A DNA stretch of 63,983 bases, filler included, from Sphacelaria rigidula (Eukaryota): assembly GCA_964200075.2 (NCBI GenBank). It is 11 parts of 11 records of this genome, joined end to end, with 100 filler letters (N's around TTAATTAATTAA, not from the genome) between each part and the next. Parts side by side here need not be neighbours in the genome. Positions count along the whole stretch, not along the records: positions 5,827 to 11,552 come from CAXNAA020024930.1; positions 11,653 to 17,378 come from CAXNAA020024931.1; positions 17,479 to 23,204 come from CAXNAA020024932.1; positions 23,305 to 29,030 come from CAXNAA020024933.1; positions 29,131 to 34,856 come from CAXNAA020024934.1; positions 34,957 to 40,682 come from CAXNAA020024935.1; positions 40,783 to 46,508 come from CAXNAA020024936.1; positions 46,609 to 52,333 come from CAXNAA020024937.1; 3 more parts are not named here. One strand, written 5' to 3'. Below the pieces are notes generated by a model, which was given only the letters and a program-made list of their open reading frames with translations, did not search any database and was not told the DNA's origin. The position numbers were made by a program, and so were the translations under genes. Below, piece after piece: positions 7,288 through 54,650 of the stretch (the stretch's first letter is position 1; every line of letters starts with the position of its first letter).

Positions 7288-7696
7288 GGGGGGCGTGCTC
7301 CTTCCTTGCTTGCCTTAGTTATTAGACCATTGACCAGGCATCCCTTTCGACACAGAGCACGGTTCCTACTCCCAGTAGCGACACCTCCAGCATTCGGGCG
7401 CTCACTCACTTTTTCCAAACGGTACGTGAGAACCTTATACAATATCTTCTGTCTATTTTCTGTTTCTTGTTCTTCTTGAGCGAGTGTTTCGCTTTTGTTT
7501 TGTCTCGGGTACGTCCATCATGAGACCACGGGGGTCAGTTAAAGTACGACGATCACCAATCAAAGACTGTTTCGCCGTCGGTGGCCGCCAGTTACCTCCT
7601 AGTATAGCCATCATTTTCCCACTACTGTGTGATCTACCAAACGACTTCATGTCACATTCGTTTACTTCCCACATTTCCCCTTTCGGGGCGGGGGGA
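7288..7696 (-). mobile_element. CT-1 LINE 3' fragment between G-runs, interrupted by an RTE 3' end (~7452-7563)
   Basis: Homologous to 17479-17890 and 52603-52920; G-runs on both sides. Confidence 0.7.
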
Positions 7697-7946
7697 AAAG
7701 GGGCCATCCCACTCAAGTGAAGAAAAAGAAAAAAAAATGAGGTCCCTGAGCAGATGAGGTGATTTTCCCCACCGTATAGAGTGACGGATCAGATCAGCAC
7801 TCTCATCAAACCAATGTTTTCTTTGTCGCTCACATCTTCAAGCTTTTCAACGACGGAAACCACACATTGAAAGACACACGCACACATGGGCGTCTGCCGG
7901 GATTCGAACCCTCAATCTTGCTGCACCTCAACCGCGCGCGCGCCGG

Positions 7947-8130
7947 GCGGGGGGGGATACTCATGATCTTGCAAGGGCATCGACCTCGCATCCCTACAAA
8001 GCCGGGACGGAGCACGCCGGGTATTCACCGGACCAGGCTGGCAAACACCAAATACGAAGCGCCGTGACATGTTCGGCGAGTCGCATGAAGGGTGAACTGC
8101 AGCATCCTGCTAAGATTGTTCGGCTCGAAG
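7947..8130 (-). mobile_element. CT-2 non-autonomous retroposon 3' fragment
   Basis: G-run followed by ATACTCATGATC; homologous to 14204-14735 and 54087-54650. Confidence 0.7.
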
Positions 8131-8306
8131 AGCACTACTTATACTTGCACATGGATGACAACCTGCAATGAGTTGCTCCATTCTTCTGCCACCGCCACTT
8201 GAAGAGACAGCCACCGGTTACACACTGCATCATGAGTGAATCATTTGAATAAACAACACCGGGACCCGATACCCCGCCGCTGGCAACTGTAAATTATAGT
8301 TCACAC

Positions 8307-8439
8307 CTTGAGGATCAGAGCAGCTCCGGGGACTCCCGAGCCACGTCCCCTGTTGACCCTGAGGTATCTAGCAAGTCCGTCCAGCATCGGCTTGACCAAC
8401 TTCTCCGAGAAAATTTCGGAAGGGTAGTCTTCCTTCACG
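8307..8439 (-). CDS. Putative internal exon of an unidentified gene (VKEDYPSEIFSEKLVKPMLDGLARYLRVNRGRGSGVPGAALILK)
   Basis: Pyrimidine tract plus CAG acceptor, GT donor, open frame; no family recognised. Confidence 0.4.
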
Positions 8440-10928: not shown

Positions 10929-10932
10929 TTAA

Positions 10933-11176: not shown

Positions 11177-11652
11177 TAACTTTTCTCTATCTTTCTTTCG
11201 TTGCATCCACCGGGAGGTTGTGCGAATTGACGATAAAAATGTCGCGTCAAAATGTCAGCGCCCAACTTCTCGAGTCACCCACAGCCGGGCCCGGAAACAT
11301 AGAAAAAAGTCACTGTCAGCTGGCCCCGCTCGTACAACATTTGCATCTGTATGCAAACGAGTGCATATATATAGACGTAGTATAGTCTATTATGAGACCA
11401 CGGCTGGACCCCTGGGGGGTCAGTTAAAGTACGACGATCAATCAATCAATCAATCAACCAGGTATATCGTACCCCGCCTTCACCCCCCCCCCCCCCCCCC
11501 ACCACCCCACACCACACCACACACCCTCCACCACGACGCCCACGCGCGCCCCNNNNNNNNNNNNNNNNNNNNNNNNNNNNNNNNNNNNNNNNNNNNTTAA
11601 TTAATTAANNNNNNNNNNNNNNNNNNNNNNNNNNNNNNNNNNNNNNNNNNNN

Positions 11653-11683
<31 letters not shown>

Positions 11684-12623
11684 TTCCTAAAATCTGCCAG
11701 GAATTTCTTCGGTACCTTTGCCAGACCCCCCTCTCCCCCCCCCCCCCCCCTCAAGAGTTCAAATCTCATTACTTACCCTGAACCAGCGCCTTATGGTCCC
11801 CCTCCTGAAGGCTAAGATGGTTTCATGTCTCGAATTCCCATCCGACAGTAATCTATGGTGCAACATGTGCCTCGTTCCACGTCAAACACACCAAAAACAA
11901 ATGTAGGAACAAAAAAATGCAACTGAGATCCAAAACTATGCCACTAAAAAAAGAAGGCAAGAAAAAAAATGATGAACCACATCATTTTATTTCATGTCAT
12001 GTGGGCAACTACAGCGATACATCGAGATATGAAACAACAAAAACGAAAACAAAAACCCAGAGAGATGATGCACCCAGATAACCACACCGCCGGAAAAAAA
12101 AGAAATTGAACAACGACTGTCGACTCGTGCTGAGCAACACATGATCCTCTACGCGGCACAGGGTTTTCGCACCGACAGAGTACGGTTTCCACGGACGACA
12201 CGGAACAAAAACAACAACCAACCAACCAGCCATCATGCAAGTAATCTTTGCCGCCTGGTTCTCTAAAAAACAATAACCATGTGCCTTCGGGCCTTCCTCT
12301 TGTCGCAACAACCAAATTTTGAAACTTTCAGTAGCCAAGAAACCGAATTTCCTTCCACCTCCTACAACATACCACTGCCACCCCCTTACCCCATCCAACA
12401 CGTAGATACTCGAAGATCTAAAGCTGTAGGAAGCACGTCTACGGAGAAACGCCTCCTGCTTTTATCGCTGCTTGCTTGCAGATTTTTTTCCCTCTCATTT
12501 TTTTTCTGTGGACCTATATAGAAGCAACTGCTCTTGGCCTACTTTTTTTTTTCCCCCTCTTGTCCTTGTTTTTGCTCAAGGCTTTGCAACCAATTACAGT
12601 TCGGGTCAAGAGTCAATTGATGC

Positions 12624-14203: not shown

Positions 14204-14735
14204 CCCCCCCCCATTCCCCCCCCTACGGGGTCAGCGATGACGCTATAAAACACGCCACTCACTGCGTAAGCTAGGCACCCACGTTACCGGTTTGTTTTGC
14301 GCGCTTGCGTTTTTCTTTGCGCGATTATGATGGTCGTCGAGCTAGATCATCATGTGCGGACTGGGGGGACCTCAACTCCGCGGATAGGAGATGACCGTAC
14401 TACGTAATGTTCACATGGTGAGACACCCATGAGGCAGTGTGTAAGCCGTGGCTGTCTCTGGAAGTGACAATACCAGGGAATGAAGCATCTCATTGTAGGC
14501 TGCTATCCAAATGCAAGATAATCAGTAGACTTCGGGCCGAACAATCTTAGCGGGATGCAGCTCTTGATGCAACTTGCCAAGCACATCACGGCGCTTCGCG
14601 CTGGGTGATTGAGTGCGAGCCTAAAACCCGGCGTGCTCCGTCCCGGATTTGTAGGGATGCGAGGTCAATGGTCTGATGACTATTGCATGCAAGATCATGA
14701 GTACATCCCTCGTGCGCCCTCCTCCTCTCCCCACT
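14204..14735 (+). mobile_element. CT-2 non-autonomous retroposon (~500 bp) between C-rich tracts
   Basis: Collinear with 54087-54650 and 23475-23773; ends CATGAGTAC followed by C-rich sequence. Confidence 0.75.
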
Positions 14736-15228: not shown

Positions 15229-16259
15229 AGACTGGTTCATGTGTGGAGATGGACCAGCCACGAAAAAATGAAACACAGTTAGGCTGTTCAATCCAAGTGT
15301 TTCTTCACGAAATTCCGACAAGATGTGCATGAGGTATGTTGTGAAGTCCCTATCGTCCCGTTTTGACGTTTTTTCAATGAGTTGCCGACGCTTTTGTACC
15401 CGTAAAAACTGTTCCGAAATTTAGATGAACAATAATTCACGAGGGGAAAAAATTACAAGAGGGGGAAACAGTAGGGGCTTGAAATATACCTGATGTATAT
15501 CGTGTCAAAATTTCATGGAAAGCGACTCGGAATTGAGCAGTGAAATCGCGTGTTTCTGTCGAGAACCGGTTCACTTGCTTCTAGAGTACAACAACCTCAG
15601 CCCGAACTTCGACGTTTTCTACAAGCCCGACGCCTTGGGGCGCTGGAGGTCTCGTCTGCGTGCCACCTCAGACCCTGCGCGCGTACAGTACGACATTAAA
15701 TGTTGTACAACCACAATTAGTGCAGCATCATCACTTTGCGGCCGCGGCACAACCGACTGTAACCGTAAATGCGATTTCAGCCGTCTTTTTCCCTAATTCC
15801 GCCGCACATGCCAGTCTCAACTCTTTACACTTCGCAGCTGACTACAGTTTGGTATTTCGTTTGATGGGAACTTGTCAGATCGCAGTGCTACGTGGAGTAA
15901 AAGACGCGCGTTGATTTGCAGATTACAACGATGTGTCAGAGTAGGCACAACTCGCGGTTGATCGTCAGTTAGACCCGGCTGAAGGACGACTGGGTATGAG
16001 TGTAGTTCTGCGCAAGGCCTTCTCTCACCGAAGCCACGTGGCAGAGGCCTGCTGTTTTTCTTCCTTGTATATTCTCCGTTGTTATGTTCTACCTTGTCTG
16101 CCGTCTTTTTTTTTATAGTATTTCTGTTTTGTTCTGTCTCGGGTACGGCCATCATGTGGCCACGGTTAGATTCCTGGGGGGGGGGGAGGCCAGTTAAAAT
16201 GCGACAATCAATAAAATTAAATTAAATTAAAATTAAATCAGAATACTTCCAAAACTGAC

Positions 16260-16385: not shown

Positions 16386-17478
16386 CTGGACGCACGTACA
16401 TTCCATTCAATTCAGCATTTGCGAACAGGGTTAGCCTGGGGTAGCAGCAGGAAGCAGGTGCTGCACGACCCGGTTCATCAGGAACTTTGGCATACTACAA
16501 CAATACATCACAAGTTGGACACGATACGGTCAATAGTTGCATGAGACAAGAAATGCACTGCGTAACGCATGGGCCCCGACAATAAGTTTCAACAGGTCGA
16601 TATCCCAGGATACGAACACTACGCAGGTTGTCGACACATACGGCCGCAAATGCTATGAATACACCGGGGAGAGATGGGTTGATTCCTCAAAACCACGGAC
16701 GCGTCCCGAGGGAGGGGGGGGGGGGGGGGAGGGGGGGGTCAAAGTGCCACACCAGAAAATAAAAAAAAAAAAAAACACAAAGGGGACAACAGGTTGNNNN
16801 NNNNNNGAAGGGGGGGAGGGGGGGGGGAGGAGGGAGACGGGGGGGGGGGGGGCGGGGGGGGGGGGGGGGGGAGGGGGGGGGGGGGGGGTCAAAGTGCCAC
16901 ACATGAAAATAATAAAAAATAATACCACACAGTGGACAACAGATTGCATCACCGAATAGTGTACTGCGTATAGTACCGAATATATTGCGTATTGCATTAG
17001 ACAACAGATTCGGCACTGCACGTAGTACACTTTATGGCAATGCAATCCATTGTCTAGGGCGTGGAATATTCCCCGAAAAGCCCCGGTACACTCTTCGCTT
17101 ACTCAACTCTACAGCATTGAACTCCAGGAAAAAGAGCACACGATGAGCGTATGCGGCTAAACTTTAGCAAAAGCGGGTGCTGCAAACGCAACGTTTACGC
17201 CTGGGACTGTCACCCCCTTAAAGATCCGAGTATGGTCGTCCTACAGTCAAGTCAACCGTGTTTTGACCGTGGAAATTGGACGACGGCACTCGCGTTATCT
17301 CTCTTCTTCTCCGCACCCCAAGTTGCATGCTACATCGAGGAAGACTTGATTCTCTGGATGGGGGGGGGGGGGGGGGGGNNNNNNNNNNNNNNNNNNNNNN
17401 NNNNNNNNNNNNNNNNNNNNNNTTAATTAATTAANNNNNNNNNNNNNNNNNNNNNNNNNNNNNNNNNNNNNNNNNNNN

Positions 17479-17890
17479 TACTCATTTGTTGCTTGCCTTA
17501 TTCGTGTGACCATTGACCACGCATCCCTTTCGAGACGGGGCACCGTTCCTACTCCTGAGAGAGACACCTCCAACATTCCGGCGCTCATTACGTTTCTTGT
17601 ATACATTACACAAAACTTTTACATATCTTATCCCCGTCCTGTTTCGCCGTCTCTGGCCCCTGTCTATCTCCTGGTATAGCCACCGTTTTCTCCGTACTGC
17701 CTGATGCATCAAACGATTCGATGCCACCTTCGTTCACGTCCCGCATTTCTCTCTAGCACGTCCCGTTCCTCCTTGTATTGTTCACATTCTGCCACTATAT
17801 GACTCTGCTCTCTATTCCCTTGCCGCAGAGGCAGTTCTGTCCATCTACTTCGTCCTCCTTTCGACGACTGGTAAATCTCTTTCTCGAAGC
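17479..17890 (-). mobile_element. CT-1 LINE 3' end with decayed C-terminal zinc knuckle
   Basis: Minus-strand NCLCGKGIESR..HIVAECEQYKEERDVLE (one frameshift); reading continues to NGHTNKASNK*; long G-run at the 5'-truncated end. Confidence 0.75.
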
Positions 17891-19128
17891 GGGGGGGGGG
17901 GGGGGGGGGGGGCTGGGCCTCGGCGAAAAACACCCCCACCGGCCCCCCGCTCAAAAAAGTGGGGTAACCNNNNNNNNNNCTGTCCCCTCTCATCCTTTGT
18001 GTGGTTTTACGCGTGCTTGGGGCTTTGGGGGGGGGAGGACGGGGTTGGGCGGGCTTAGCCTCGGCTGAGACATACCACCCGTTGACATCCTTGCAAAAAC
18101 ATGGTTGAACCACGTAAAAACTTGGTGTTGCGAGTATTAAGTGTTTGGAGCGTTGTGATAATATCGCTGTGCGGCAAGGGTACCGCGACACGAGTAGCAA
18201 GCATGGGACGCCACTCGCGCCGAGATTTTAAAAATTCATAACTGATGCAATTGTCAAATGTTCGGAAAGTGAAAAAGAGTAGACAAAACGCCTCCACGTT
18301 CTTGCGGGGAAAAAAAACGGGAGGGCGGGATGAGAAACACCGACGAGAGGGGACTGCAGCGTGCCTACTGCATGCCCTCTGGCTGTTGGTAGAGGCGGTA
18401 CTCTACTGTACTTTACATGGCTGCACTCTCGACCGTTGCTCGCCAGCTCTGTGACTCTTGAGACAGCCTTAGGTAGGCCCTTCAGGCAACCATGAACGTT
18501 GGCGTCCGGAAGACACGATCCACCTAGTCAGACCGTCATGGTACGGCTTGCAGTACATGTGGTGATACATGTACCAAGATATTGGCACACAGCGGCAGAA
18601 GCATAGATGGTGGGAGGGTAAAAAAAAAAAACACGCTCGCCCTTCTTCCTTGAGCACGGTAAAATGCTGCTGCATGTCTACTGACTCCAAGTGTTAGTTT
18701 TGTGCCGCTCGTGCTCAGCATTCGTATCCCTGTCGCATCCACCGTCGCGTTCATAGCCTATCTACAGTATCCCCTCTCCAAGAAAATCTCCGGTGACTGT
18801 CAGCGGACAACATTTCGGAACAGAAAAATGGCGTTTATTTGAAGGTTGAAGGGGAGACCGCGCGTAGAGTATATGCAGTAGAGACGTTCAGCCACGCTTC
18901 GTGTCTGCCCGCACCGTGCACTGTTTCGTGCGTCATGCGGCGATGAAATCCCGTGTCAGTATTTAGGTACATGTATTCACATCGGTATACTTCACGCCGC
19001 TTTTAAAAAGGATCATATGTCCTCCCACATCATCTCAAGTGGACGTGCATGCTGCGCTGTAACGACTGACTGATACTGTGCAATTCTGCCGTCGCTTGCC
19101 ACTGCCTTCCTCGGTGAACGGACCTCAG

Positions 19129-19683: not shown

Positions 19684-21731
19684 GTGAGTGCTGGTTGGTG
19701 TACATGGGAGATTGCGGGCGATTCTGTGAAATAAAAAATTTTGCTGCGCTATAGTACACCACGGCAACGTTGTTCCAAGGGCAAGTGATTGTCTTATTCA
19801 CCTAAATAGTGCCGGTAGCGCGACGAAAGCTGTGCGTTGACCTTCTGTTTTCATCCGTCTATCGAGAGATATGAGTCCGGGTCTTCGTCGTGGAAATCGG
19901 ACTCTCTCTCTCTCTTCAACTGCTACGGGAACGTTTTGAAGTAGTCCTGAGGACTCGAGTCAGCTCGTACTTTCCCAAATCCGTCGCTATGACTCGACGG
20001 ACGCATAGGGCGTCTCGACAGTATTTGAGAGGAGGGGGGGGGGGGAACGAGATCAAAGTTGATCTGCTATGTGTAATGTTGATGTTGCCATCGGATCCGG
20101 CATTGGCAAAATAATTCCGGCGCTGAGATTCTCGTCCCTTTTGGAACCGTTGATGGAAGAAGTAACGATTTAAAAACTCCCGTATGCGAGCTTTCGTCGC
20201 CGGGAAAACCTCACTTCGAGTTCGGTGCGCGAATCTGCCACATGAGTATACTTGGACTCGAAGTGGTGCGCCGTTTTGGTGAGCTGCATAATCAACAGTT
20301 GCACAAAAACAACAATATCTTGCCCAAGAAAACGTCAATTTCAAATCGTCACTTTCCCATCAACGGTTCCAAGAGGGTTTACGACGTATGCCGTGCTTGT
20401 TTTGTTTTTGATCCGTCGATAACTAAGGGCGTGTCTTGGCCAATTGTTTATCGATGTAGAAAGTGCGGTGGAAAATAAACAAATCCAATCTGATATGTCA
20501 TGTCAACATGGATGACGTGGACGCAAAAGTCGACCTATTCTGACCTATTGGATCGGTTTTTTTATTTTCCGCTGCTGTTTTTTTTACCGAAAAATTGTTT
20601 ACTAAGACTCGACCTGAGGTCGGAATGGCTGTTTCAGCGAAATCGTGCACCTCAAGTGGTGCCTAAACTACACATTTTGAGGCAAAATAGATTTTACTAT
20701 TGTTTGCACTCATGGCTGATGCTCGCACAATACAAATGCCGAACGCACTCGATCCAAGCTTCTTGTATTACGGTGAAAATCAGGCTATCTGTGGGTGTAA
20801 AGCAGTTCCGCAGTACCACGCTGAGCGTCTGAACGTGGTGCTGCATACTCTGAAATGATGAGACCACGTTTCACATCTCGAGACCTCCTGGGGTTGGGGT
20901 GGGCGTACTCATTCGTTGCTTGCCTTGGTCGTTTGACCATAGACCACCCTGGGGTCGGAGGGGCGAGGGGGTCTTGACCCTGTCACCGCCGTAGTTGGGG
21001 TCGTCTGTCAACTGTTTGGATCGTCATTATTTTTCCCTGGAAAATGACCGAGACCCAGATGATCCACCCTGGGGATCCAAGGGTCAGAGATATTTTACCC
21101 CCCCCAAAACGAACGCGTCAAAGAAAAGAAAAATCGAGGTGGGGTTAACGCGAAGCCGGCGACAAAAGTCCATCGTTAAAGATATCTTATTTTCGTCGAA
21201 CTCTCACTTTATCGCTTGTAACGCGATTTTGGATTTTTGTTTTTGCAGTATCAATAGCTCCAACGTTTGATGATGCAGCGTTTTTTTTTTGGCGGGGTAG
21301 TCCGGTGGAGTTCGAGAATGCGAGGACTGTGTGCCCGAATGTTCGAATATTGAATACTTTAAAGTAGAGTAAATTAAAAAAACTTCCAAGAGAAAGCAAA
21401 ATCACTTCCAAATGGTTGGCTTGCTCTAATGGATCGGCTCGAAAGATTCTGTTGTCTGACCTTATACTCTCGGACAGCGTGAGTAGGTCATCTGTAGAAT
21501 CGTCATTAATTTCCGCTTGAAAATAAGTATGCACTGTCCAGATGGACTGCCCTCGCGATCCAAGGGTTGAAGCTTTATTGGGACTTATTTCCGTGCGCTT
21601 CTTCGCCCCCCCCCCCTACCCGCGCGCACGCCGCCCCTTATGTTGTTTGAACATATTTGACGTCTGAGCATGTCTACTTCTCTCCCTCCCGTGTGCCTGC
21701 CCTTGCATTCTTCCGTTTCGGATCATGATAG

Positions 21732-23304: not shown

Positions 23305-23773
23305 GGGATGCGAGGTCAATGGTCTGATGACTATGGCAAGCATGATCATGAGTACACCCGCCCCTCCCTCGCATTCTATGTGCTCCGTCTCAAAAGGGAT
23401 GTGTGGCCAATGGTCATACGACGAAGGCGAGCAATAAACGAGACCCCCCCCCCTCGTTTTCTTTGGTGTTTTGACACCCGTGAGGCAGTGTATAAGCCGT
23501 GACTGTCTCTGGAAGTGGTGATATCAGAAAATGGCGCAACTGATTGGAGAACGTCATTCGAATGCAAGATAATCAGAAGGCTTCGGGCCGAACAGTCTTG
23601 GCAGGATGCAGCTCACTCTTCATGCGACTCGCCGAACACGTCACGGCCGATCGCGCTTGGTGGTTGATTGCGAGCCTGGTCCGGCGAAAACCCGGCGTTC
23701 TCCGTCCCGGCTTTGTAGGGATGCGAGGTCATTGGTCATATGACTACGGCATGCATGATCATGAGTACACCCG
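23305..23773 (+). mobile_element. Tandem stack of CT-2, CT-1 and CT-2 3' ends
   Basis: Three same-orientation tails; the first two are followed by C-rich runs. Confidence 0.75.
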
Positions 23774-25304
23774 TATTCTATGATCCATGACCGACTGTGC
23801 CTTTTCATTTGGTTGAGAAACTTTATCAAGTCATGGATCACCCTGGTACGTCGGCCGGGTTTTGTACGTCCGCGCTTGTACCGTGGGACGGGAACAACGA
23901 CACGCATGCTTCCACAATAGTGCATGATATATGCCTTTTCCCACACAAGTGGAGTTTCCCTCCCCCATCTTCCTACCGTGGCACGGAGAAGGCCTCGGAT
24001 ACGAACCTTACATTTTCCTTCCCACTTGTACCGGATATATCTTCCTACTGCTCCTCGCCATGAATCTGTGCTCGACCTCTGCCGGACGAATCGTTTGATT
24101 CTTGCTTGTTGTCTACGTTGAATGGACGGAAAAAACGCAGCGGGACATTGTACTACGACTACGTGACAACCAATCTTTACCCGGTGGCCTACACTGCTTT
24201 ACCCATTCTGCTGTTCGGAACCTACGACAGAGACATCTCTGCAGCAACTTGCCTCCGGTGAGAAGGAGTGATCATGCACATGGTGCGTTTGGTGTACATC
24301 ATTGGAGCAAGCATTATACTATAATACGTGTACTTCGTGTCGTGACATGGCTCGAAGGATATAGTTCCTTCGGTGTTTCAGCGAAAGTTGTGCAACGATT
24401 TGTTTCAGGGTAGAGTATAGTACCACTACAACGCAGTCTCAAAGCCGAGATATCGTTTCGTTTTGTACAAGGCCTTTCGGTAAGGGTCGTTTTAAACGCG
24501 GGTCGTTTTCTTTGTTCAGATATGTTCAGAATTTTCTGGAAACAAATATTTTCCTCGAAAAATGTGTTGGCAGATTTCTCATTCAGGTCAAGCAAGAAGT
24601 TAATCTAACATCTGACTACATATTATTCGCAAAGGCTAGCGTTGGACTTTTTATCCGAATCGTTTCTATTCACGTTTAAAAGTCGGAAAACGTCCCGAAA
24701 AAGTAAAAACAAAAGTGAGAACAAATCCCGGTAATATCGGTCCTAATCATGTACAAGGGCAGTCCGCGCTTTCATACTCCCACATCCGAAGGTCGGGCAA
24801 CAAAAGAAGACGGGGCGTACTCATTTGTTACTTGCCTTAGTCGTTTGACCATTGATCACGCATCCCTTTCGAGACGGAGCGAGACGGGGGGCGGAGGGGG
24901 CGGAGGTACTGCTGTTCCGTCGTTGAACTACGGAGTATTTGTACGACTTTCTTCCAAATAAGTGTGTTTTCGGTTTTCAATATAATAGTGCTGCGATGTC
25001 AGCTCTGGGGAGTCGGCTCAGTATCCATTCCGCTTGCTTGAGTCCTCCATCGGCGAGTGATATTCACACGATTCGGTCAGCGTTGCCGTAGCAGTCCGTC
25101 TTCGGTGCCTATTTTGACAGCAGATTCGTCCTGGGAGGGAACCGTTCGATAAGAAAGAAAGCGCAAACATGCATGGTAAATGTTTTTTATGCTGGATGAT
25201 GACACCACGGGCCTATGACACGTACGCTTCTGTTCTATTCAGGCGTCGTAATAATGAAGGGAGGCACTTTTTCGTTTTTGTGATTGCGTGCATTTCCCGT
25301 GCAG

Positions 25305-27738: not shown

Positions 27739-29616
27739 GTACAGTACATACAGTAAGTACACAGCCACCCTTTAGGAGGTATTTTCCTACAAGTTCGGCG
27801 CAATTTTTACGGAAAAAAAGACGGAAACGATTTTTTGTTTTCATTTATTCACACTAGTCATCAAATACGATTGATCTAAACAGGACAGAGTACTCCGCCG
27901 TAGTGCGTACCAAAACCAGCCATTCATTGGATCTATGGATGATGCGTGTCGCGTCTATATACGCGTTTCTATATATTGAAGATCGTGCCGTATAATAATT
28001 GCCTTTACGGCAAGGGGAGTCATAGATTTAGAATCAAGAGAACCAAGACCCAATCTAGCGCGATGGAGGGCGTATCCACTTACGGATCTCCCAATGTCCC
28101 CAGAACCACCGGAGAATCAATACGGCGCTGTATTTCACGAATGTACAAGCTAGCGTGTAAAACTCGTGAAACGATACGATGAAAAGTTTTTATTCATCCT
28201 TCTGTGGTGTCGTACCATCCGGGCTGCTACAAATGAGGTTCGTGGGCCTCGCCCTCTCGCCGTGGGTGTGGACGCAGTAGCGGGAGTCTCAGGGAGTGAG
28301 TCAAAATACGGATGGCAGGTTCTATGACCATCCGGTCCGAGCTAGTGACGGGGGGAGATGAGTGTCGGACGCGGTTGTCTCCCTCGAAGGACGGGTAACG
28401 GTCGGGAGTCAACACGAACATGCGACATGAGATTGACGGCATCTTTTGCGTCGACATTCGCCCTCCGTTGCGTGTAGAAACAATAAGAAGGAGAAGGCAG
28501 ACCAGCGTGAATATAGTACTTCCTTTGGGCCAATCAACTGTTGAACGGGCTTGCTGCCCACACCGTATGTACATACGTATTAGTCGAACCCTTTCGCCAA
28601 ATCGCCGACGAGTTCTTCGGTTTCCGCACCCAGTTCACGGTCTACGTTCCCCGAGAGTGCCCAGGAATTCTTTCACCATCACGCTGCCTCGTCGCGACCA
28701 TGGCATTCTCTTTCATGATCGCACCATGCCATCTGCCACGGCCGATCTTAGGTAACTGGATTTGCACCCACCCGATAATATCACAACCCAGAGGTTTGTG
28801 GTATTTCAGGTTCTACATATAGCGACATGGGAACGCAATGAGCGATTCTGCATCATTGCTATACCGGCGATAATGACGCGTTCCAATAGCCAGCCCCTTG
28901 CATCGCCGTCGAGGACAAACGTAGAGAAATGAGTCATCCAACGACATATCAGGGGGGGGGGTGTACTCATGATCATGCATGCCATAGTCATACACCATTG
29001 ACCTCGCATTCCTAGAAAGGCGGGGCGGAGNNNNNNNNNNNNNNNNNNNNNNNNNNNNNNNNNNNNNNNNNNNNTTAATTAATTAANNNNNNNNNNNNNN
29101 NNNNNNNNNNNNNNNNNNNNNNNNNNNNNNCAATAAATCTCGTTCTCACCTGGCGCGGAGGATGGATTTAAGAAGGGTCTTTTTCGGTGAGGTGGGGAGG
29201 CACAGGACGGGGGGGGGGGGGGGGGGGGGGGGGTGCAAGCGTCAACACCGATGCCACGGTTCGCGCTGGTGACATCGCGATTTGCTGAAACAGCGAGATC
29301 AACTTGATTTGGAGTGATGCTACGGTAGGGGTGCACAAGTTTTATCCGAGGTAATTGTTAAAAACCCTTCATCTCATCCAAAACACGACCTACGAAATAT
29401 GTGAGAGTACGCCAGGATTACTGTTCCAATGTGCCATTCTAGGGACATCCCGAGAAAAAAATGCAAACGGAGATGCCCTGACCCATATTATTGTGCATCT
29501 AGAATCGTCAGGAGCTCCTGAACCGGACAACATCTTGCGCAAAACGTGTACTCTCTACAATAGCATTGCTTTTTGATTCATCATCTCTTCTGTGGATTAG
29601 TTTCAGAGTCGTGGAA

Positions 29617-30289: not shown

Positions 30290-31200
30290 AGAGCTCTCGG
30301 GCGAGTGGGACGTATTCATTTGTTGCTTGTCTTAGTCGTGTGACCATTGACCACGCATCCCTTTCGAGACAGAGCAAGTGGGGGAGGGGGGTACTCATTC
30401 GTTGCTTGCCTTAGCCGTTTGTACACCTCGGGCAACGAGGATGGGTATGATGACCTTGGCACACTGTGCGTCGGGAAGCTGAAGCTGAAATCGACACCGT
30501 ACACCTCGAGTTGAAACGCATTCGGCGCACGCTGCACGGGCACCCGGAACTGTCAGCTCCCCAAAAGATTCAATTGTGAAAGTCCACACCTCAGCCAAGC
30601 GTCTTCTGGCCCTTGAATTTCCTCTAACGATCGGCCTCAAAACTCCACTGGTTTACGCGATGCCATAATGCCACGTTTTATTTTGTTCCGGGTGCGTTCA
30701 TTATGTGACAATGTCTGGATCCTCGAGGAATCAGTCAAAGTTCTACAATTAATCAAATCACCTCAATCATAATTCAAGATGAAGGCGTCCACATAAAAAC
30801 CTACCGCACACAAGACGACGAAGACACACCTACCCACTTGAGGTCACAGTCTACCCATGATTAATGATTTTTTACAAATATCGCTGAACCTCAACCACAA
30901 CCCGAGGCATACCGAGAGCCCTCGGGCAGGGCAGGGGGGGGGGGGGCGCATTCTCATTTGTTGCTCGCCTTAGTCGTTTGACCATTGACCACGCATCTCT
31001 TTCGAGACGGAGCACCGCCGCAGGGGGGGGGGGCAATAGGGGAGTGCATAGGTCAAAGTGTGCGTGCGTAGATCTCACATCGGCGCCGTAGTTGGTGATC
31101 AGCAGAAGAACGCATTCTGCGCACGCTGGGAGCATACGGGACTGTCCACCTCTCTTGAGATCCGATTCTCATTGTTTACACTCAAATCAGGTAGGATGTT
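30290..31200 (-). pseudogene. Possible duplicated, decayed ankyrin-repeat fragments disrupted by CT-1 insertions
   Basis: ACAECVLLLITNYGADV...TPLL at ~31030-31130 and frameshifted ACAECVS..EVYGVDF at ~30490-30535. Confidence 0.35.
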
Positions 31201-33463: not shown

Positions 33464-33469
33464 TAATAA

Positions 33470-37569: not shown

Positions 37570-38921
37570 AGTAACCCGGCTGAAAAACATCGTACAAGTT
37601 GCAAGCCAAGGGAAGAAGCCAACAGCCGATGGTAAGGGGCAGGGGAATGCCGCATTCCACATATAATTTCAGTCACTACAGAAGCTGCTAGAACAAGGGC
37701 GATGGAAGCTATGCTGGACGGATGTGCTACATGGCGGCTGCGATCCGAGGACTTCAACAGTCTGCGCGTTGCCCATCACGTGCTTTTGCTGCGAGTGGTC
37801 GGATTTCGCAGGGGACAGCAAACTGGCAATAAGATTCTTTCATACAGACCCGTGCTTGAGATGACCAACTGCGAACGTATCGAGACGAGCATTCGCAAGC
37901 GCCAACTCCAGTGCTAGGGGGCCCTTGTCCGGCAGGACGAAATGCACCTTCCAAAGCGCATCATGTTCGGACGACTGGCCGTACAAGGCTCCAAGGAGGC
38001 TGGCCGCCCCCCCACACACTGGGCGGACTGCATCCAGGAGAACTTACGTGCACTACATTAGCGCTCTTCCACGCAAAGGAGCACAACGGAAATGATTAGC
38101 CTACAGAGTGGAGGTCAACGACCCACACGATTGGATCACTCCGAAGAACACTGGCGGATGACACCTTGGAGTTAAGGAAGGGGCGGAAAGTTGGAGGAGA
38201 GGAGACGTGGCGACGTCAAGACAAACTCCAGTCGGACCGTCGCTACGAACAAAAGGATTCTGCATCGAGAGCAGCCGAAAGGAGAGCCGTCACCGCTGAC
38301 GCTACAACAACAACGGCTCGTGAGGAATCCAGGATGGAAACGGTCGAGGGTAAGTCCCACTTTGTACACTGCTAGGGATGAATGAGGAAAGCTGGGTTAT
38401 AACACAAAACCTGATGTAACACTGTCTTCTCTTGTCAATCCTTGAACTTTTCCTGGGCCTGTAGTCTGGCGGTGTTCCCAGGTTGAGCTTTGGTACATGC
38501 TCTACCGTGTCCTTGGCTTCCATCGCTTCCCAGCTTTTTTCTTCGCTGTTTTTATTCTTTCTCCTTTCATTTCCTCTCTTAAAGTATTTCTCGCTATTTG
38601 TCTCTTGTCAGTGTTATACGGTAGCAGTTTGGTGCCTTGCTTGCGTCGGGATCATGGTCAAGACTCAACCCAAATAGTATGGTCCGAAATAGATGAGCCA
38701 CCACCTGCTTCATCGGTATTTTGGTTTGGTTTGGTTCGTTCCGGTTTTGGTTCCTCAGTCTACTCCGTTTGTTAGGTACATATTGCCGTTTTCACTGTTA
38801 CTTCTTTTCTTGGGCAAGCGTTTCCGGTTTGTTCACCTTGGGTAGGTTTACTTTCTGGATAATGACCACGACTGGGTCCGTCTTGTGGATAATGATCAGT
38901 TAATGTGCGACCATCAATCAA
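37570..38921 (+). mobile_element. RTE LINE 3' portion (ORF end, 3' UTR, ATCA-repeat tail)
   Basis: EAMLDGCATW..., IETSIRKRQLQ, LPKRIMFGRL, GRPPTHWADCIQENL; tail shared with short 3' ends at ~7500-7563, 11390-11460, 16050-16240, 22090-22165, 26865-27120, 36525-36600. Confidence 0.88.
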
Positions 38922-46508: not shown

Positions 46509-48277
46509 NNNNNNNNNNNNNNNNNNNNNNNNNNNNNNNNNNNNNNNNNNNNTTAATTAATTAANNNNNNNNNNNNNNNNNNNNNNNNNNNNNNNNNNNN
46601 NNNNNNNNGTGGGGAAAGCACTGTTTTAGGCTTGAACCTCATCTCGAAGTTAAACCTCAATTCGCACAATTTGTTGTTTCTTGTGAGAAATTCTGGAGCG
46701 GCCTCAAAAATACCCTTGAAAGGCTCCCACGTACATTCGTCAAGGTTGGAACCGACCCAGTCGACCAACACGATCAACAATCGATCGTCTGCTTCTGCCA
46801 CTCGGGCAATATCAGCCATCTGAAAGTGCCCCTGATTGAAAGCTTGCTGGAACACGCCCTTAACGTCAGCCGTAACATTAAGCTGCGAGTCTGCATAAAA
46901 ACGCAAACGAGCTACATGGGCGGTGTGAACATGACCCGGAACAATGTTTAGAATCTCGAACACGTGCGGGTTGTGAGCACCAACCACTCTCCACGGATCA
47001 GTCCACGACGCCATCAATATGGGCGCAACGCCCGGACGACGCACGCGTGAATACAATACATAGTCGCCTACCTCCAAATTCGACAATTCCAGCCCCGATT
47101 AGGACCCCTCACGTCTACGCGCACGTTCAGCGGCAATACGTTCCTGCACTTGAACGCGGAAACTTTCATGCAAGTCCAAGACTCCTTGCAATGCACGCTT
47201 AATTTGAACATCGTCCAAAACATCATATTTGCATTTTCCCGCCGACGAAGACGCCAGCAGCGAGAAAGACGTCCGAGGAGCACGATCATACATCACGTGG
47301 TACAGCGTACTATCGCCATGACCACGATACGCTGTATTGAGTGCCCATTGCACCGCGGGCAACACGTCCACCCACTCGGAAGCCGCTCTACGCAGCTTGA
47401 GAAGAATAGAGCGAAGAACACGAACTACTTCCTTCACGATGCGTTCGTACGTGCCGTTAGACCACGGAGAATACGCCACCTCAAACTGGTGGTCAACGTG
47501 CAAAGCCTCTCGCAATCGGGCAAAGATCACATTTCTAAAATGCGTGGCGGTATCACTCACCCACACACGCGGCACCCCCAAAGTTTTGCACCAATTTAGC
47601 AAAGATGCAGGAGTCGATTCAGCAGTACACACCGCTGCTACTGGTTCCAGAGACACAAAGTTACTCAAACCATGCATGGTTACCAAAATGTATAGAAACC
47701 CAGCATCCTCCGGCAAACCTGGGGAAGCTAGCGGGTCACTCACGTCCACGTTCAAAAAGTCAAAATAAACGACTTCATTCGGGCGGGGAACAACATCACC
47801 TGCCCTCGAGTCAACACAGCGACGACACTGACGGAAAAATTCGCGCACATGAGTTTCTATCCCCTGCCAAACACAAAAATCTTGCAAGCGCACGAGCGTC
47901 GCAGCCTCACCATGATGCCCGGCGTCGCGCATGTGCGCGCAAATCATCAGACATACCTGCAACTGCTTGTCAGAACTCGGAATCCACAAAACGTTTCGGC
48001 CACGCACATGCACACAAAACAGATTTTCATTGTCTGAGATAGCAGTGCCAACGTCCGACTCGAAAGATTGCACATCCGCATCTTCTGCCCCAAGGTTTGC
48101 CGTTGCGCTTGGCGGCCAACACATTTGGACGGCATCGAGTCATCAGGTTCACACGGACCATACACAGCCACAGCGCGCACAGACAAAGCCGGAATATTCA
48201 CCCAACGCGAAAGCAAGTCACCCCGCGCGTTACGGTCACCCGAAATATGGGAAATCGAGTAACGATACTGGCCAGGA

Positions 48278-48525
48278 GACACGTTTTACGATAGCCCCCC
48301 CCCCAAAAGTGCATGGTTTTGGGAGGCAAAATCTTCACGTAAATCGAAATGGGAAAAGCCGAGCACAACGAGTAGCTGGGGAATTCCCACGACCGGGTTC
48401 GTTCTAGACAGTATTGCCAATATGAGGCGCTTCATGCAGCCTGAACCCAAGCATCAGCCGCTGTATGCTCATTTTTTCGTGACACTTTTGGCTGGTTTCG
48501 GGGGGGGGCTATCGTAGAAAGTGTC
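48278..48525. mobile_element. GACAC-TIR MITE inserted in gypsy RNase H
   Basis: Splits KAVL|GQYRY; flanks AGGA/AAGA. Confidence 0.87.
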
Positions 48526-51044
48526 AAGAACAGCTTTCCGACCCTCCAAACTATGAGCCAACGCCTTCGACACAGAAGTAACGCACGCTTCCGGATTAAA
48601 AATATACACGGGATTTCGGTGATCCGTCGAAATGTGCACGCCATCCCACAAAAGATGCTCCAGGCGACGAAAAGTGCTCACGATAGCAAAACCTTCCTTG
48701 TCAATTGTGGCCCAACGCAACTGCAAACCCTTGAAATTACCACTGAGGAAAGCCAGCGCTTCATGCGTCATATCCTCGACCGGCAAGCGTCATTGCATTT
48801 CATCTTTAGGCACCTGCGTGACAAATCTATCCCAATGGCACTCAGGTGCGTCCGGAAACATCAGCACCTGACAATAAGGACGAGGATGAAACAGGGCCAC
48901 GGCGTGAGCCACCAGATCCTTCGCTGCCGCCCACGCCTGCAGCCCACCCTCCGTCCACGATGCAGCCTTTTTCGGAACCACCATATCCGGACTGAACCAC
49001 TCCACCTGCAGTTCCGTAACACCAACCCGAGCGCCAAAAGAGTCGCCATGCACGACGCCAACCAACTCGACTTCACCGGATCGTACCGCCGCGGCTTCGT
49101 CTTCACCACGGACGCCCCAGGTTCAGCTGAATACATATTGGCTCCACGCGCGCAGGAGGATCACCCCGCAGCGCACGCCGAAACGCGCTGACGCGGCGAT
49201 GCAATATGCCGCTCAGGCGCTCCGCTTTTGAGACGCCGAGGACTTTTTGGCACAGCATCCGTCACGCTCTCCTCCGGCGCGACCTTCCGAGCGGACGTCT
49301 CTTCCGCCGGATCCATAAACATCTCCGGGCCGCGCTCTACCGAGCGTCCCACCGCCGCATTCCGCTCCTCGGCCACCTGTCCCCCAGCCTCCTGAAAAGC
49401 ATCCACCGACAAGCGCACGCGGCGACAGCCCAAAACGGCGGGCGTCTCCACGCGCGGACCAGGCGGAGACATCCGCGTCTTCATGGAGTCCCACAACCGC
49501 GCGTACGGGTCGACTCCAAGATCTGAAGCGTCGGCAACCCCAGAAGAATGACGCCATCCGACCCCGGCATGATCGCAAATGAGATTAGAGGCAACGGCGC
49601 CGGCCCCCCGGAAGTGGTGAAAATCAGCTGCAGCGGAACAGTACGCCCTGTGACGAAAACATGCTGACCGGACGCGGTGACGGCCTGCCGCGCCTCGAGT
49701 GGAAAAAGAATGCAAAGTGGCACACCCGGGAGAAGATGCTCCAATATCTCTACAATCTGCACCGACAGGCTCCCATAACTCGTAAAGTGGGCGCCAGAAT
49801 CCAACACAGCCCGAACCGCAAGGGCTCCACGCTCCCGTTGATTTGGAAGGTACAACTCCGCAGGAATGTACTTGTCCGCAAACTCCACTGGCACTTCATC
49901 CGCCGACCGGCGCGCCGCTAATCCCACTTGACGCCACGGCTGCGCAAGCTACACAGGCGAAGACGCCCCGGCATGTTCAAACTGTACCGCCGGCGGGTAT
50001 GACCCCCAGCCAGCAGACCAAGAATTTGGCGAACCTCCGACCAGCGCATCAGCAGGCGTCGCGCCAGGCGCTACCGCCGGTGTCGCCACCGGCGCCACCA
50101 CCGGCGGCAGCGCACTGTTCGACGCTGTAGAAGTCGGTCCCACCTGCACCGCCCGTTGCGGACCAGCGGCACCTCCGGCGGCGCCGGACCCAGAACCAGA
50201 TCCATGCCGACGCCGCTGACCCTGCTGCCGCCGCCGCCGCTGCTGGTGCTGGTGCTGGTGCTGGTGCTGAGAACTCGATTGCGACCCTCCACCGCTGGAG
50301 GATCCGCCGCCGCCGCCACCACTCCGATCACCTTGTCCTTTGCCCTTGTGCTGACGATGCTGATGGCGTGCGGTATGAGACTGCCCAGACTCCCCACCGG
50401 GAGACGTTGGGCAATTGCGCGCGTAATGGCCGACCTGACCACAACTATGGCAAGTGCTCGCCGCATATCCAGCATGCTTTTTGATCGCCGCTACCAATTG
50501 TGGCAGGGTGATTGTGCTCTTTTATGTTGCACACGCGCAAACATTCTTTGCACATGCGTCGGTACTTGTTGAGCCATCGACACTACCTGATGTCGCATTG
50601 CACCCCCTGCGTTAGCGTGCTCCACACGCTTACTGTACTTCCTCTACTTGGTATAGAAATTACGAGATGCACTCTCGGAGTACGTATCCCCGTATTGAGC
50701 AGGTCGCACGTCTTCCCGCATAACCACGGGCGTGAAGCTGGACGTACTACACGAGCGATCGCCATAGCTGCAGCCGGCTACCTTCGAACCCTTCGCAGGC
50801 CAGCGGACCTTCGCGAGTTGCACATTCTCTTGCTTCGTTGCCGCACCACACAGTTGCAGGAGCCCCCAATCGCCAGTGTAGATCAATCACAGCCCAGCCG
50901 CCTTTTTGCAGCCGCCTCAGCTGGAACCCTCTCCACGCGTCCGTGGTTTATCAGGTTTTTCCACAGCTGCAAGACTCCTCCGCCAAAACGTTTCCAGCAG
51001 GTTCTGCTAGGTACTATCTTCAGCAATAACACCAATATCGATAT

Positions 51045-51785: not shown

Positions 51786-52501
51786 TAGATGTCCAGCGAT
51801 AGTAAAAGCGAGGCAGGCAAACCAGCTCCGCCTTTTGCTCTCTTTCTTCCGACTTCCTTCTGACATCTAACTTACTGCTGTCCACGTCTACCCCTCGGTA
51901 GAACATGGAACGCCAAGTACATCTCCTCGCGTACGTTAGGTATTGAAAGTGACTGGGGACTATCACGGATCTTCGACAATAATAAAACCTTTTCGATCAT
52001 CTCCATCATCGAGACACGCTCGACTGCTGCCTGAGCTACAAATTGCTCCAGCGTCTGAAACTGGGAAGCGGTGTTCACACCCGTGAACCTCATGGAGTGA
52101 GATTACTTTAACATGATGTCGTCTACACGAGAGTCACTTATCGTGACTTCAGGTGAAGGGAAGCACGATTGTTTAGGAGTCGAGCCTTATTTTTCTGTTC
52201 AACCCCATTTCTCACGGTCCCTTGTTTATATGGACGAGTCATGCTACGATAGGGGGTGGGTGGGTGGGGGGTACTCATGATCATGCATGCCATAGTCATC
52301 AGATCATTGACCTCGCATCCCTACAAAGCCAGANNNNNNNNNNNNNNNNNNNNNNNNNNNNNNNNNNNNNNNNNNNNTTAATTAATTAANNNNNNNNNNN
52401 NNNNNNNNNNNNNNNNNNNNNNNNNNNNNNNNNGGTCAGTAGTCTGGTTGGTTGCCTCTTAAACCGTCACATCGCGCTCTATTTTGGCGTGACTCGCAAG
52501 T

Positions 52502-52602
52502 GGGGCGGGGTGTACTCATGATCTTGCATGCCGTAGTCATATTACTGTTGACTTTGCATCCTTACAAGCCGGGACGGAGCACGCCGGGTTTTCGCCGGGC
52601 CA
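52502..52602 (-). mobile_element. CT-2 3' end stacked on a CT-1 copy
   Basis: G-run plus TGTACTCATGATC; other end abuts the G-run of CT-1. Confidence 0.75.
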
Positions 52603-53720
52603 GGGGGGGGGGCGTGCTCGTTTGGTGCCTGCCTCAGTAGTTTGACTGTTGACCACACATCCCTTCCAAAACGGAGCACCGTTCGTATTCCTAAGAAAAA
52701 TACCTCCAACATTTGGGCGCTCAGTACGTTTCTTCCGTACATTACACACAAACCCTTTTACATATCCTATCCCGTTCTCGTTTCGCCGTGTCTAGCCACC
52801 ATCTATCTCCCAGTGTAGCGATCATTTTCTCGCTACTGCCTAATGTACCAAACGATTCCATGCCACCTTCGCTTACTTGCCACATTTCTCCCTCCTACCA
52901 CGTCCCGTTCCTCCTTTCATACTTCACAGCATACATTTTCGTCCGGGCAACACACGTCATCCCCGATGTATCTCTTGATCCTAGCACTATTTTATCGCCG
53001 AAACTGCACCGCGCTGACCTGCACATTCTGCACGGGTCGCATTAGAATCAATGGTGCTTCAAACGTTTTGGGTGTAACTCAAGAAGCTTCTCCGAAGTAC
53101 AACGTTGACGACCGGGGCTGCGTTGAAAATTCCATGTTTCCTATTTGCTTTTGGCGAATTAGGTTAGACTGGGCGAACATGCCACGATGTCGGACGTGCG
53201 GGAGCTACTCCGCCCCAGGGGCCTGCTAACCGTGGATGTTGAAGCTCTGCTTCGCGATCCCGTAAACGTGGAGATCAGCAAGAGCGTCAAGAAAAGGGAC
53301 GTGGGGGGGTGTGCAGGAAGTACCGTCAGCTTCGAAATCACAGGTGCGTGAGGTGCATTGAAGTCTCACGCACACATGGCGCATTTTGCTACGCAACCAG
53401 CACGCGATCCCGGCTACTGAATCGACGCTTTCCAGCAAAGTGAGATGTTTCAAACGTTGAAACTTTTGCATTTTTCGTGGAGAAGGAGAAACGTACGGAG
53501 GCTGTTTTCAAGGATGCACCTACAATGAACAAGGCACCCGCGTTTCGACCGACACTTTTGGGATTTCACCCAAGCCCACTGTGGACCGTTGGCTGAACCA
53601 AACCTGATTTAGCGGGTTCGCCATCTTGGCGCGTCCGCAGGGCGCCGCGAGCATGTCTGGACAATGAACAGCTCATCTATGCGAAGCCCCGTTTGACCAA
53701 ACATGAATATCCGACTGGCT
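52603..53720 (-). mobile_element. Longest CT-1 LINE copy, with possible highly decayed RT region
   Basis: 3' ~320 bp clearly matches 17479-17800; upstream RT-like remnants VKRGFA*MSCSLS and TVGLGEIP are weak. Confidence 0.55.
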
Positions 53721-54086
53721 ATCGGGTGACCTCATGACCCACGGCGTTGTGCGCGTGCGCGTGGGCCTGTAAGCCGCTGTTTACATGCCAGCACGTTTGT
53801 GTATGCGTCTGCGTCAGGGTCACAAACGCAGTAACCCCAGCACAATTCAGCGCATTCGGATGTAGTGGAGTATGGTCAAAGGACAGACATACGTACGACG
53901 TGATAACGAACCGGGGAATTATGGTGTGTTTCAGTCTGGAGGCACTCGAATACCTCTAGATCTCTTGTAAGGTGAAACGTGAGGTCTCTTGTGAGGTGGA
54001 ACGAAACATCTTTCATGAGGTGAGACATGAGATCATGGTAGCACCGCATAAGGTCGCAACGGTCCGTGCTGTGAACCGGAGCCCTT

Positions 54087-54650
54087 CCCCCCCCACGCCC
54101 CAGTAGGGTTGGCGTCGGTTCGCAACGACGCTGTAAAACACGCCACTCAGTGCATAAGCTAGGCAACCAGGTGACCGACCGCTTTTTTACGCTTGCGTTC
54201 CATTTGTGGTAACCATGATGACGTCGTGCTGGTCGAGCTAGCTGGTCGAGCTAGCTGGTCCAGCTAGATCACATCGTGCGGAGTGGAAAGTCTCAACTTC
54301 GCACAAAGGGTATGGCCGTACTTCGTAGTGTTTGAATGATAAGACACCCATGAGGCAGTGAAATCTGTGACTTCCTGGAAGTAGCGATACAAGAAAATGA
54401 AGCAGCTCATTCACGGCTATCATCCATATGCAAGACAATTAATACGTTTGGGGCCGAGTAATCTCAGCAGGATGCAGCTCACCCCTCATGCGACTCAGCG
54501 TCCACACCCCGGCGCCTCGCGCTTTGTGCTTGATTGCAAGCCTGGTCCGGCGGAAAACCGATGTTTTTCGTCCCGGCTTTGTAGCGATGCGAGGTCAGTG
54601 GCCATATGACTACGGCATGCAACATCACGTGTACCCCCCCCCCCCCCTCC
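54087..54650 (+). mobile_element. CT-2 non-autonomous retroposon between C-runs
   Basis: Collinear with 14204-14735; C-runs on both sides. Confidence 0.75.

Follow-up and report, generated by a model that had tools for sequence, protein, structure and literature searches.

The closest described counterparts of the elements reported here are the RTE-X retrotransposons of Ectocarpus, which belong to the class without long terminal repeats (non-LTR) and are catalogued in a curated repeat library (PMC12477816, Genome Biol 2025, supplementary file 1). According to the library entries, RTEX-1_Ec32 (5511-5867 bp) has a 'single EN-RT ORF; (C)n 3'', that is one open reading frame (ORF) for endonuclease (EN) and reverse transcriptase (RT), as well as a target site duplication (TSD) annotated as 'C-rich', and RTEX-2_Ec32 (5582 bp) is listed with '(C)n termini/TSD'. 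Two non-autonomous entries accompany them: RTEX-N1_Ec32 (604-607 bp), described by the remarks '5' head unknown', 'can be present in tandem' and '60 bp 3' end 83% RTEX-1_Ec32/RTEX-2_Ec32', and RTEX-N2_Ec32 (188 bp). RTEX-N1 is given as the most abundant family in the Ectocarpus genome, and the remaining Ectocarpus non-LTR families are recorded as terminating in (CAA)n, (CA)n or (A)n (PMC12477816). Here, we describe two repeat families, termed CT-1 and CT-2, in a stretch of 63,983 nt from Sphacelaria rigidula (assembly GCA_964200075.2), the whole of which is called the window in the following. Both families have a fixed 3' end that is followed by a run of C residues.

It is highly probable that CT-1 represents 5'-truncated copies of an autonomous long interspersed nuclear element (LINE), that CT-2 is its non-autonomous partner and that both were inserted by target-primed reverse transcription at C-rich tracts, matching the RTE-X/RTEX-N pair of Ectocarpus. 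Compared by description with the library entries, CT-1 and CT-2 are a further member, from another alga, of the RTE-X/RTEX-N system curated for Ectocarpus and not a new kind of element. Like the RTEX-1_Ec32 and RTEX-2_Ec32 elements described there, the LINE behind CT-1 encodes EN and RT in one frame, terminates in (C)n at its 3' end and has left many 5'-truncated copies. CT-2 corresponds to RTEX-N1 and RTEX-N2, as far as their descriptions go, in being a small element without coding capacity whose 5' head is of unknown origin, and in all three the last ~60-100 bp resemble the autonomous LINE (83-87% in RTEX-N1/N2, 81-84% in CT-2). For RTEX-N1 and RTEX-N2, too, the TSDs are recorded as C-rich. 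The remark that RTEX-N1 occurs in tandem has its counterpart in the presence of CT-2 in the arrays at 23305-23772 and 52513-52935, and the two longest CT-2 copies (480-534 nt) differ in size from RTEX-N1 and RTEX-N2 as listed. Among the publications consulted, none was found to deal with a LINE that has a poly(C) tail or targets C tracts, and the Ectocarpus library entries note just '(C)n'. A Blepharisma paper was set aside, its relevant passages being concerned with a terminal inverted repeat (TIR) of a DNA transposon that contains a C-run and not with a LINE.

The window does not correspond to a single locus. It consists of 11 pieces, each of ~5726 nt, which are linked by spacers of the form N44-TTAATTAATTAA-N44 (5727-5826 and nine more), and has a GC content of ~49%. 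Several pieces end inside repeats or homopolymers, namely C31 at 11653, G19 at 17360-17378 and CT copies at 17479, 23305, 29030 and 52333, which suggests that these are contig ends of a fragmented assembly. By BLAST of four long copies against the window, 17 CT copies were identified on seven of the 11 pieces, nine of CT-1 and eight of CT-2, including the four that are cut at the piece ends just mentioned. An earlier note on this DNA, made from the sequence alone, had described about 16 copies on seven scaffolds with a shared fixed 3' end and variable 5' truncation; every copy named there was recovered, the six C-runs it had placed at truncated 5' ends are all present, and its statement that poly(A) tails are lacking agrees with what is reported below. 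The fixed 3' end reads ATGAGTAC(G) in CT-1 and ATGAGTAC(A) in CT-2, in each case followed by a C-rich run, and the terminal sequences are ...AACAAATGAGTACG and ...GATCATGAGTACA, respectively. The 5' ends lie at differing internal positions, leaving bodies of 30 to ~430 nt for CT-1 and of 50 to 534 nt for CT-2. With at most one mismatch, TGAGTACCCCC occurs 11 times in the window as compared to 0.81 expected, a number reached in none of 100 shuffles (0/100), and nine of these 11 sites are located at CT copies, the exceptions being at 865 and 39972. The individual copies and two features that adjoin or interrupt them are as follows.

7294..7680, minus strand: CT-1, 5'-truncated LINE 3' end; both flanks C-rich; matched by tblastn to P0038, amino acids (aa) 1336-1424.
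~7455-7565: unrelated small repeat of ~108 nt, nested within CT-1 7294..7680.
17479..17890, minus strand: CT-1, 412 nt; covers, with a frameshift, residues 1295-1426 of the LINE frame; 3' tail lost at the start of the piece.
17891..17912, minus strand: C22 (G22 on the plus strand), adjoining CT-1 17479-17890 on the upstream side of its truncated 5' end.
20906..20947, minus strand: CT-1, 42 nt; both flanks ...ACCCCAGG by eye; apparently placed at the C-run inside a member of another small repeat family.
23380..23443, plus strand: CT-1, 64 nt; middle of the head-to-tail array 23305-23772.
24818..24880, minus strand: CT-1, 63 nt; 95.7% identity to the metagenome loci L001/L002; by eye CGCCCC..GTCT on both flanks.
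30313..30376, minus strand: CT-1, 64 nt; begins directly behind the C-run of the copy 30392-30421 (head-to-tail).
30392..30421, minus strand: CT-1, ~30 nt; tail CCCCCCTCCCCC.
30951..31017, minus strand: CT-1, 67 nt; 95% identity to L002; between C13 (30934-30946) and C11 (31023-31033), each of which is then followed by TGC.
52615..52935, minus strand: CT-1, ~320 nt; C10 tail at 52603-52612; 5' side without C-run; the 5' limit is uncertain, homology to L002 being clear to ~52928 and weak past there.
7957..8251, minus strand: CT-2, ~295 nt, 5'-truncated; tail TC8; 5' side without C-run.
14224..14703, plus strand: CT-2, 480 nt, probably full length; C9ATTC8 (14204-14223) directly upstream; tail only CATCCC.
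23305..23354, plus strand: CT-2, last 50 nt, 5' part lost at the start of the piece; first member of the array.
23473..23767, plus strand: CT-2, 295 nt; third in the array, 19 nt away from the preceding C10 of CT-1 23380-23443.
28964..29030, minus strand: CT-2, last 67 nt, cut at the end of the piece; tail CAC10.
52272..52333, minus strand: CT-2, last 62 nt, cut at the end of the piece; tail C6ACCCACCCACCCCC.
52513..52604, minus strand: CT-2, 92 nt; begins within the C10 tail of CT-1 52615 (head-to-tail).
54100..54633, plus strand: CT-2, 534 nt, probably full length; between CCCTTC8 (54087-54094) and C14 (54634-54647).

The small repeat nested within CT-1 7294-7680 belongs to a family of the form ...GTACTTTAACTGACC, C-run, ..CCGTGGTCTCATGATGG..., copies of which are located at 7455-7565, 11380-11450 and 16100-16190. 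The length of the internal C-run varies between 5 and 11 in this GTACTTTAACTGACC/CCGTGGTCTCATGATGG family.

The coding nature of CT-1 was established with the help of metagenome sequences. A degenerate motif derived from the 3' module shared by both families was scanned against metagenome contigs and a collection of viral contigs. Three metagenome contigs contain the motif, and all of them end in ...AAATGAGTACG followed by C8-C10 or a C-rich stretch; no match was obtained in the viral contig collection. Long open frames are located at L002:119-4399(-), encoding 1426 aa, and at L001:694-4455(-), encoding 1253 aa and running off the contig. Pfam searches identified in these frames the domains Exo_endo_phos (E = 7e-13 for L002 and 3e-11 for L001) and RVT_1 (E = 1e-30 and 8e-33), and a Cys/His-containing region is found C-terminal of the RT. 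The LINE frame ends in ...VVNGQ(T/M)TKASNK-TGA, and the TGA that closes it is part of the terminal TGAGTAC (ATGAGTAC), so that the gap between frame and C-run amounts to only 4-5 nt. The CT-1 copies of the window show 74-96% DNA identity to the 3' ends of the metagenome LINEs, and seven of the nine are matched by tblastn through the last residues of the frame, the longest (17479-17890) spanning aa 1295-1426. Thus, CT-1 is coding sequence and constitutes what heavy 5' truncation has left of the 3' end of an autonomous LINE, whose EN and RT domains are seen on the metagenome relatives.

Among named relatives, proteins of Ectocarpus come closest to the L002 protein, with 55% identity over 963 aa in a collinear match that extends to the extreme C-terminus, and the LINE probably belongs to the RTE-X clade. 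In most of the listed relatives of the L002 frame (P0038-P0069), down to ~40% identity, a ...(C/R)VVNG... motif is present 6-11 residues before the stop. This motif is encoded by the GGTCAATGGTC stretch, which CT-2 also keeps as DNA. Its conservation could reflect a constraint on the peptide, on an RNA signal, or on both.

The C-runs at both ends of the copies were then compared with random sites. At the 3' end, a C-run of at least 4 within 15 nt past ...GAGTA was counted, and at the 5' end one of at least 5 within 25 nt upstream. By this measure, 13 of the 16 visible 3' ends carry a C-run, compared with 3.8% of random sites (p = 2e-16); the runs of the tails are 3 to 14 residues long, and at none of these 16 ends was an A tail found. 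C-runs are likewise present at 10 of the 14 visible 5' junctions, compared with 2.4% of random sites (p = 6e-14), on the same strand as the element, and a G-run at none of the 14. At four of the 5' junctions, the copy starts inside or immediately after the C-run of a neighbouring CT copy, which results in three head-to-tail arrays (23305-23772, 30313-30421 and 52513-52935); if these four are left out, 7 of 10 junctions still show the run (p = 5e-10). Since C-runs stand on both sides of the insertions, they look like a target and not just like a tail, and the strand-specific enrichment at the 5' side together with the head-to-tail arrays favours insertion into C tracts over mere tailing.

The recurrence of the C-runs was also seen in sequencing data. 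Contigs of four sequencing runs (X1, X2, X4 and X5) were aligned to the piece 29131-34856. In three of the four runs, the listed loose ends of 159, 142 and 45 contigs, respectively, are located at the 3' end of the module and consist of TAC(G) and a long C-run; for X4, no loose end of this type was among those listed. The summed depth exceeds 1 million in the bins of the module and is ~30-50 in unique bins, a difference that does not represent a copy number.

The alternative that survives best assumes that the C-run is a 3' tail only, templated by the RNA or produced by RT slippage, that there is no target preference and that the C-runs on the 5' side are the tails of older copies. We regard this as unlikely. 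It would account for the variable length of the tails (3 to 14) and is compatible with the lack of statistical support for duplications past the C-run, which is described below. The 4 of 14 5' junctions that adjoin the tail of another CT copy would also fit, but repeated landing in older tails would in itself be a target preference for C-runs. Moreover, the seven of ten junctions that have a C-run of at least 5 without an upstream CT copy exceed the 2.4% expected, no ...GAGTAC precedes the C-runs of these seven, and the curators of the Ectocarpus library recorded 'C-rich' TSDs in its entries (PMC12477816).

CT-2 is non-coding and has a length of ~480-534 nt, as judged from the copies 14224-14703 and 54100-54633, the two longest, which share one start position, each directly behind C-runs. 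The consensus sequences of CT-1 and CT-2 are 81-84% identical across the last ~50 nt. They have in common the motifs GGGATGCG-GGTCAATGGTC, GAC-A-GGCA-GCA and ATGAGTAC, and farther upstream both contain a GTGCTCCGTC box. Outside its last ~70 nt, CT-2 shows no similarity to the LINE loci or to the LINE protein, to which no CT-2 copy gave a tblastn match. A classical short interspersed nuclear element (SINE) was considered for CT-2 and rejected: the search for a 5' head of tRNA, 5S, 7SL or snRNA origin with a pol III promoter gave no tRNA, the window has no Rfam match at the gathering score, and the two long CT-2 copies have no relevant Rfam match at E values up to 1. As judged from its sequence, CT-2 is a non-autonomous element of ~0.5 kb whose end imitates the terminal ~50-70 nt of the LINE. 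This is the usual picture of a non-autonomous partner that has taken over the 3' recognition end of a LINE, and CT-2 was presumably copied in trans by the LINE proteins.

It appears quite improbable that CT-2 belongs instead to a second subfamily of autonomous LINEs, of which it would be the truncated 3' end. Ectocarpus does have two autonomous RTE-X families with similar 3' ends according to the library, but the same entries include a non-autonomous partner of ~600 bp (PMC12477816). Just two CT-2 copies reach the supposed 5' end, which would fit this view; these two, however, begin at one and the same position directly behind C-runs. Furthermore, the last ~400 nt of CT-1 are coding and were found by tblastn, whereas no CT-2 copy matches LINE proteins. 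The idea that the two end types are the TIRs of a single DNA transposon or the ends of a Helitron, or that the C-runs are artefacts of sequencing or assembly, has next to no probability, since the CT-1 end codes for the C-terminal part of an EN-RT frame, which refutes the DNA transposon, since the orientations do not pair as inverted ends (7294-7680 and 7957-8251, for example, are both on the minus strand), and since the C-runs, although some long C/G runs are found where pieces end or next to N gaps (11653, 17360, 16797-16806), are internal with unique sequence on each side and recur in three independent metagenome contigs and four sequencing runs.

For the preferred reading of a LINE and a partner inserted at C-rich tracts, the following mechanism can be envisaged. 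By analogy with L1, an endonuclease of the apurinic/apyrimidinic (AP) type would nick the G-run strand of a C/G tract, and the freed 3' end of the G-run would pair with the C residues that the RNA has at ...GAGUAC(G/A) or behind it. This would be the starting point of reverse transcription, which would often abort and thus result in 5' truncation. A staggered second nick would duplicate the tract, leaving a C-run on each side with a tail run of variable length, and each insertion would renew the C-run as a target for the next copy. Such a fresh C-run per insertion would explain the head-to-tail arrays. The nick site, the priming by the G-run and the mobilisation of CT-2 in trans are inferred, as is the membership in RTE-X; the anatomy of the repeats, the coding nature of CT-1, the domains of the LINE, the C-run statistics and the arrays were observed.

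Several observations weigh against the reading. A full-length or RT-bearing copy of the CT-1 LINE is not present in the window, which contains at most 430 nt of the 3' end (<=430 nt), and the frame is taken from metagenome contigs; assignment to RTE-X rests on matching features and on the Ectocarpus relatives and not on a reference tree. The designation of CT-2 as 'full length' is based on two copies. Three of the 16 tails (30307, 14204 and 23475) are just CCC, and four of the 14 5' junctions have no C-run of at least 5. RNAalifold on 16 copies of the shared module gave a weak fold (-3.4 kcal/mol) with 1 compensatory pair, so that a conserved hairpin of the RNA is unsupported. No empty site was found: none of the contigs of the four runs bridges or cleanly skips a CT copy, the contigs break inside the copies, and the listed contig joints link different CT copies with 19-31 letters on the shorter side. 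Finally, duplication past the C-run lacks statistical support. When true and mismatched pairs of 5' and 3' flanks were compared by local alignment, with plain scoring and then with C matches down-weighted, the true pairs did not score above the mismatched ones (p = 0.21 and 0.40, respectively).

By eye, duplications that start at the run and extend a few bases past it can be recognised, namely ACCCCAGG at 20906 and CGCCCC..GTCT at 24818, as well as C11-13 TGC at 30951 and CCCACT at 30313. Given the age of the copies and the C-rich nature of every flank, these four are suggestive only. In the array 23305-23772, the three C-rich flanks all continue with ..CG..TTCT.TG. A comparison of the small repeat family (7440-7600, 11340-11480 and 16060-16240) with the site of CT-1 20906 gave a mean column identity of 46%, a faint hint that this copy sits at the C-run of a diverged member of the family and that the other family copies are paralogous empty sites.

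The biological reading given in the earlier note, a LINE with a partner and a C tract as insertion site, turns out to be largely right. The EN and RT frame of the metagenome relatives and the tblastn matches to its end bear out CT-1 as a non-LTR LINE, the short, non-coding CT-2 with a 3' module 81-84% like that of CT-1 fits the proposed partner, and comparison of the 5' flanks with random sites gave the enrichment in C-runs described above; the pairing of the two end types as inverted TIRs of one DNA transposon, which the note had named as speaking against its view, is excluded, as the end of CT-1 codes for part of the LINE frame. The note had proposed that the family either inserts into C/G homopolymers or adds a poly(C) tail. 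Of these, insertion is favoured by the 5' enrichment and the arrays, and a duplication past the run is not supported. One statement did not hold: the note knew of no named family of this type, and the library describes RTEX-1_Ec32 with a (C)n 3' end and RTEX-2_Ec32 with (C)n termini, together with the partners RTEX-N1 and RTEX-N2 (PMC12477816). The note had itself held that a match to a described family would remove the novelty, and the match to the kind of family described for Ectocarpus does so.

C/G homopolymers are in excess in the window. There are 40 C/G runs of at least 8, compared with 1.4 expected, and 11 of these are at CT ends; among runs of at least 12, 16 are C/G and 4 are A/T. 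Long homopolymers or arrays of them are located at 16714-16888, 29209-29233, 11483-11500, 11735-11750 and 5878-5892, examples being G16, G14-C-G18-A-G16 beside N10 gaps, G25, C18, C16 and G15. The 29 runs of at least 8 away from CT ends form 23 orphan C/G tracts, and a CT module is found upstream of none of them. To our knowledge, targeting of mononucleotide C tracts is rare among described LINEs. As a tentative proposal, which we hold to be rather doubtful, this group of LINEs might be a true specialist for mononucleotide tracts, with EN and priming requiring (C)n/(G)n and the RNA signal lying inside its own coding last ~50 nt, and might seed its own targets and thereby part of the homopolymer excess. 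If so, self-seeding of C-runs could explain part of the excess of C/G homopolymers, and the targeting of C tracts may bear on the abundance of long, hard-to-replicate G/C homopolymers in such genomes. For annotation, the system accounts for many of the short repeats in contigs of brown algae and for many of the breaks in their assembly.

Apart from the CT copies, the window contains further retroelement sequences. Two rounds of Pfam scans, on 23 and on 60 frames of the window with at least 105 aa, detected only retroelement domains, and among these 83 frames there was no host gene; the closest named relatives of the retroelement proteins of the window are from the brown algae Ascophyllum and Ectocarpus. 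A degenerate LINE of a family different from CT-1 is located at 56-1482 (minus strand), with a frameshift near 652 and with RT motifs in which YANNAG replaces YADD. It shows 62-79% identity to unnamed proteins and matches an entry of Ascophyllum nodosum. As autonomous partner of the CT families it was rejected, its RT being 29% identical to the CT-1 LINE protein and the terminal module being absent. A sequence of ~38 nt (..GACGGTTTAAGAG.CAACCAAC.AGACTACTGACC) is common to two piece ends (1-60 and 52434-52471); in piece 1 it shortens the LINE frame and is followed by a perfect palindrome of 30 nt at the extreme end of the piece. This sequence could mark the end of a different mobile element or reflect a fold-back in the assembly. 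An old C-terminal fragment of a LINE frame at 37666-38112 (plus strand) is 35-43% identical to relatives of the LINE in piece 1 and was likewise rejected as CT partner, as no recognisable 3' module or C-run lies downstream.

Remnants of a Ty3/Gypsy-type LTR retrotransposon at 46553-50521 (minus strand) gave Pfam matches to integrase zinc-binding and core domains, to a zinc knuckle and, weakly, to a chromodomain. A repeat of ~250 nt is present at 29616-29867, 31673-31935 and 48278-48525; two of the copies are inverted, 1.8 kb apart and 86% identical, and the third is located elsewhere. In each copy, short inverted words (GACACTTT...AAAGTGTC) enclose a C/G run (8-12). These repeats may be the TIRs of a DNA transposon and are unrelated to the CT module. 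Unclassified interspersed repeats are found at 32092-32352, 58259-58616 and 62888-63250, as well as at 55385-55580, the counterpart of 63506-63710; they are 80-89% identical within their sets, and their frames have no Pfam match.

Known homopolymer- and microsatellite-associated LINEs provide a wider frame for these results. The endonuclease of L1 nicks at TTTT/AA, the freed T-run anneals to the poly(A) of the RNA, and the TSDs start with the homopolymer; new copies of L1, and of Alu or SVA with it, often insert in old tails. By analogy, the same logic would apply to the CT families. The homopolymer of L1 is A and is supplied by polyadenylation, whereas that of CT is C, poly(A) is lacking, and the frame ends 4-5 nt before the run. 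Among the LINEs that target microsatellites, Dong inserts in (TAA)n, Kibi in (TC)n and Mino in (AC)n, which places the simple repeat on both flanks and lets copies stack in arrays. CT resembles these elements in having a simple repeat on both sides and in forming arrays; it differs in that its target is a mononucleotide C run and its clade RTE-X-like, whereas Dong, Kibi and Mino belong to R4 or L1-Tx1.

Overall, the system closest to CT is that of Ectocarpus. The RTEX-1_Ec32 and RTEX-2_Ec32 entries are annotated with 'C-rich' TSDs; the CT copies have C-runs on both sides, and duplication past the run lacks statistical support. At ~55-66% protein identity to Ectocarpus, the CT-1 LINE appears to represent a different family, probably that of another alga. 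Its copies in the window are older, with 5-25% divergence among themselves and from the metagenome copies. Thus, the combination of a (C)n-ended RTE-X LINE and its partner, which had been noted for Ectocarpus, is also found in the Sphacelaria window and in marine metagenome contigs.

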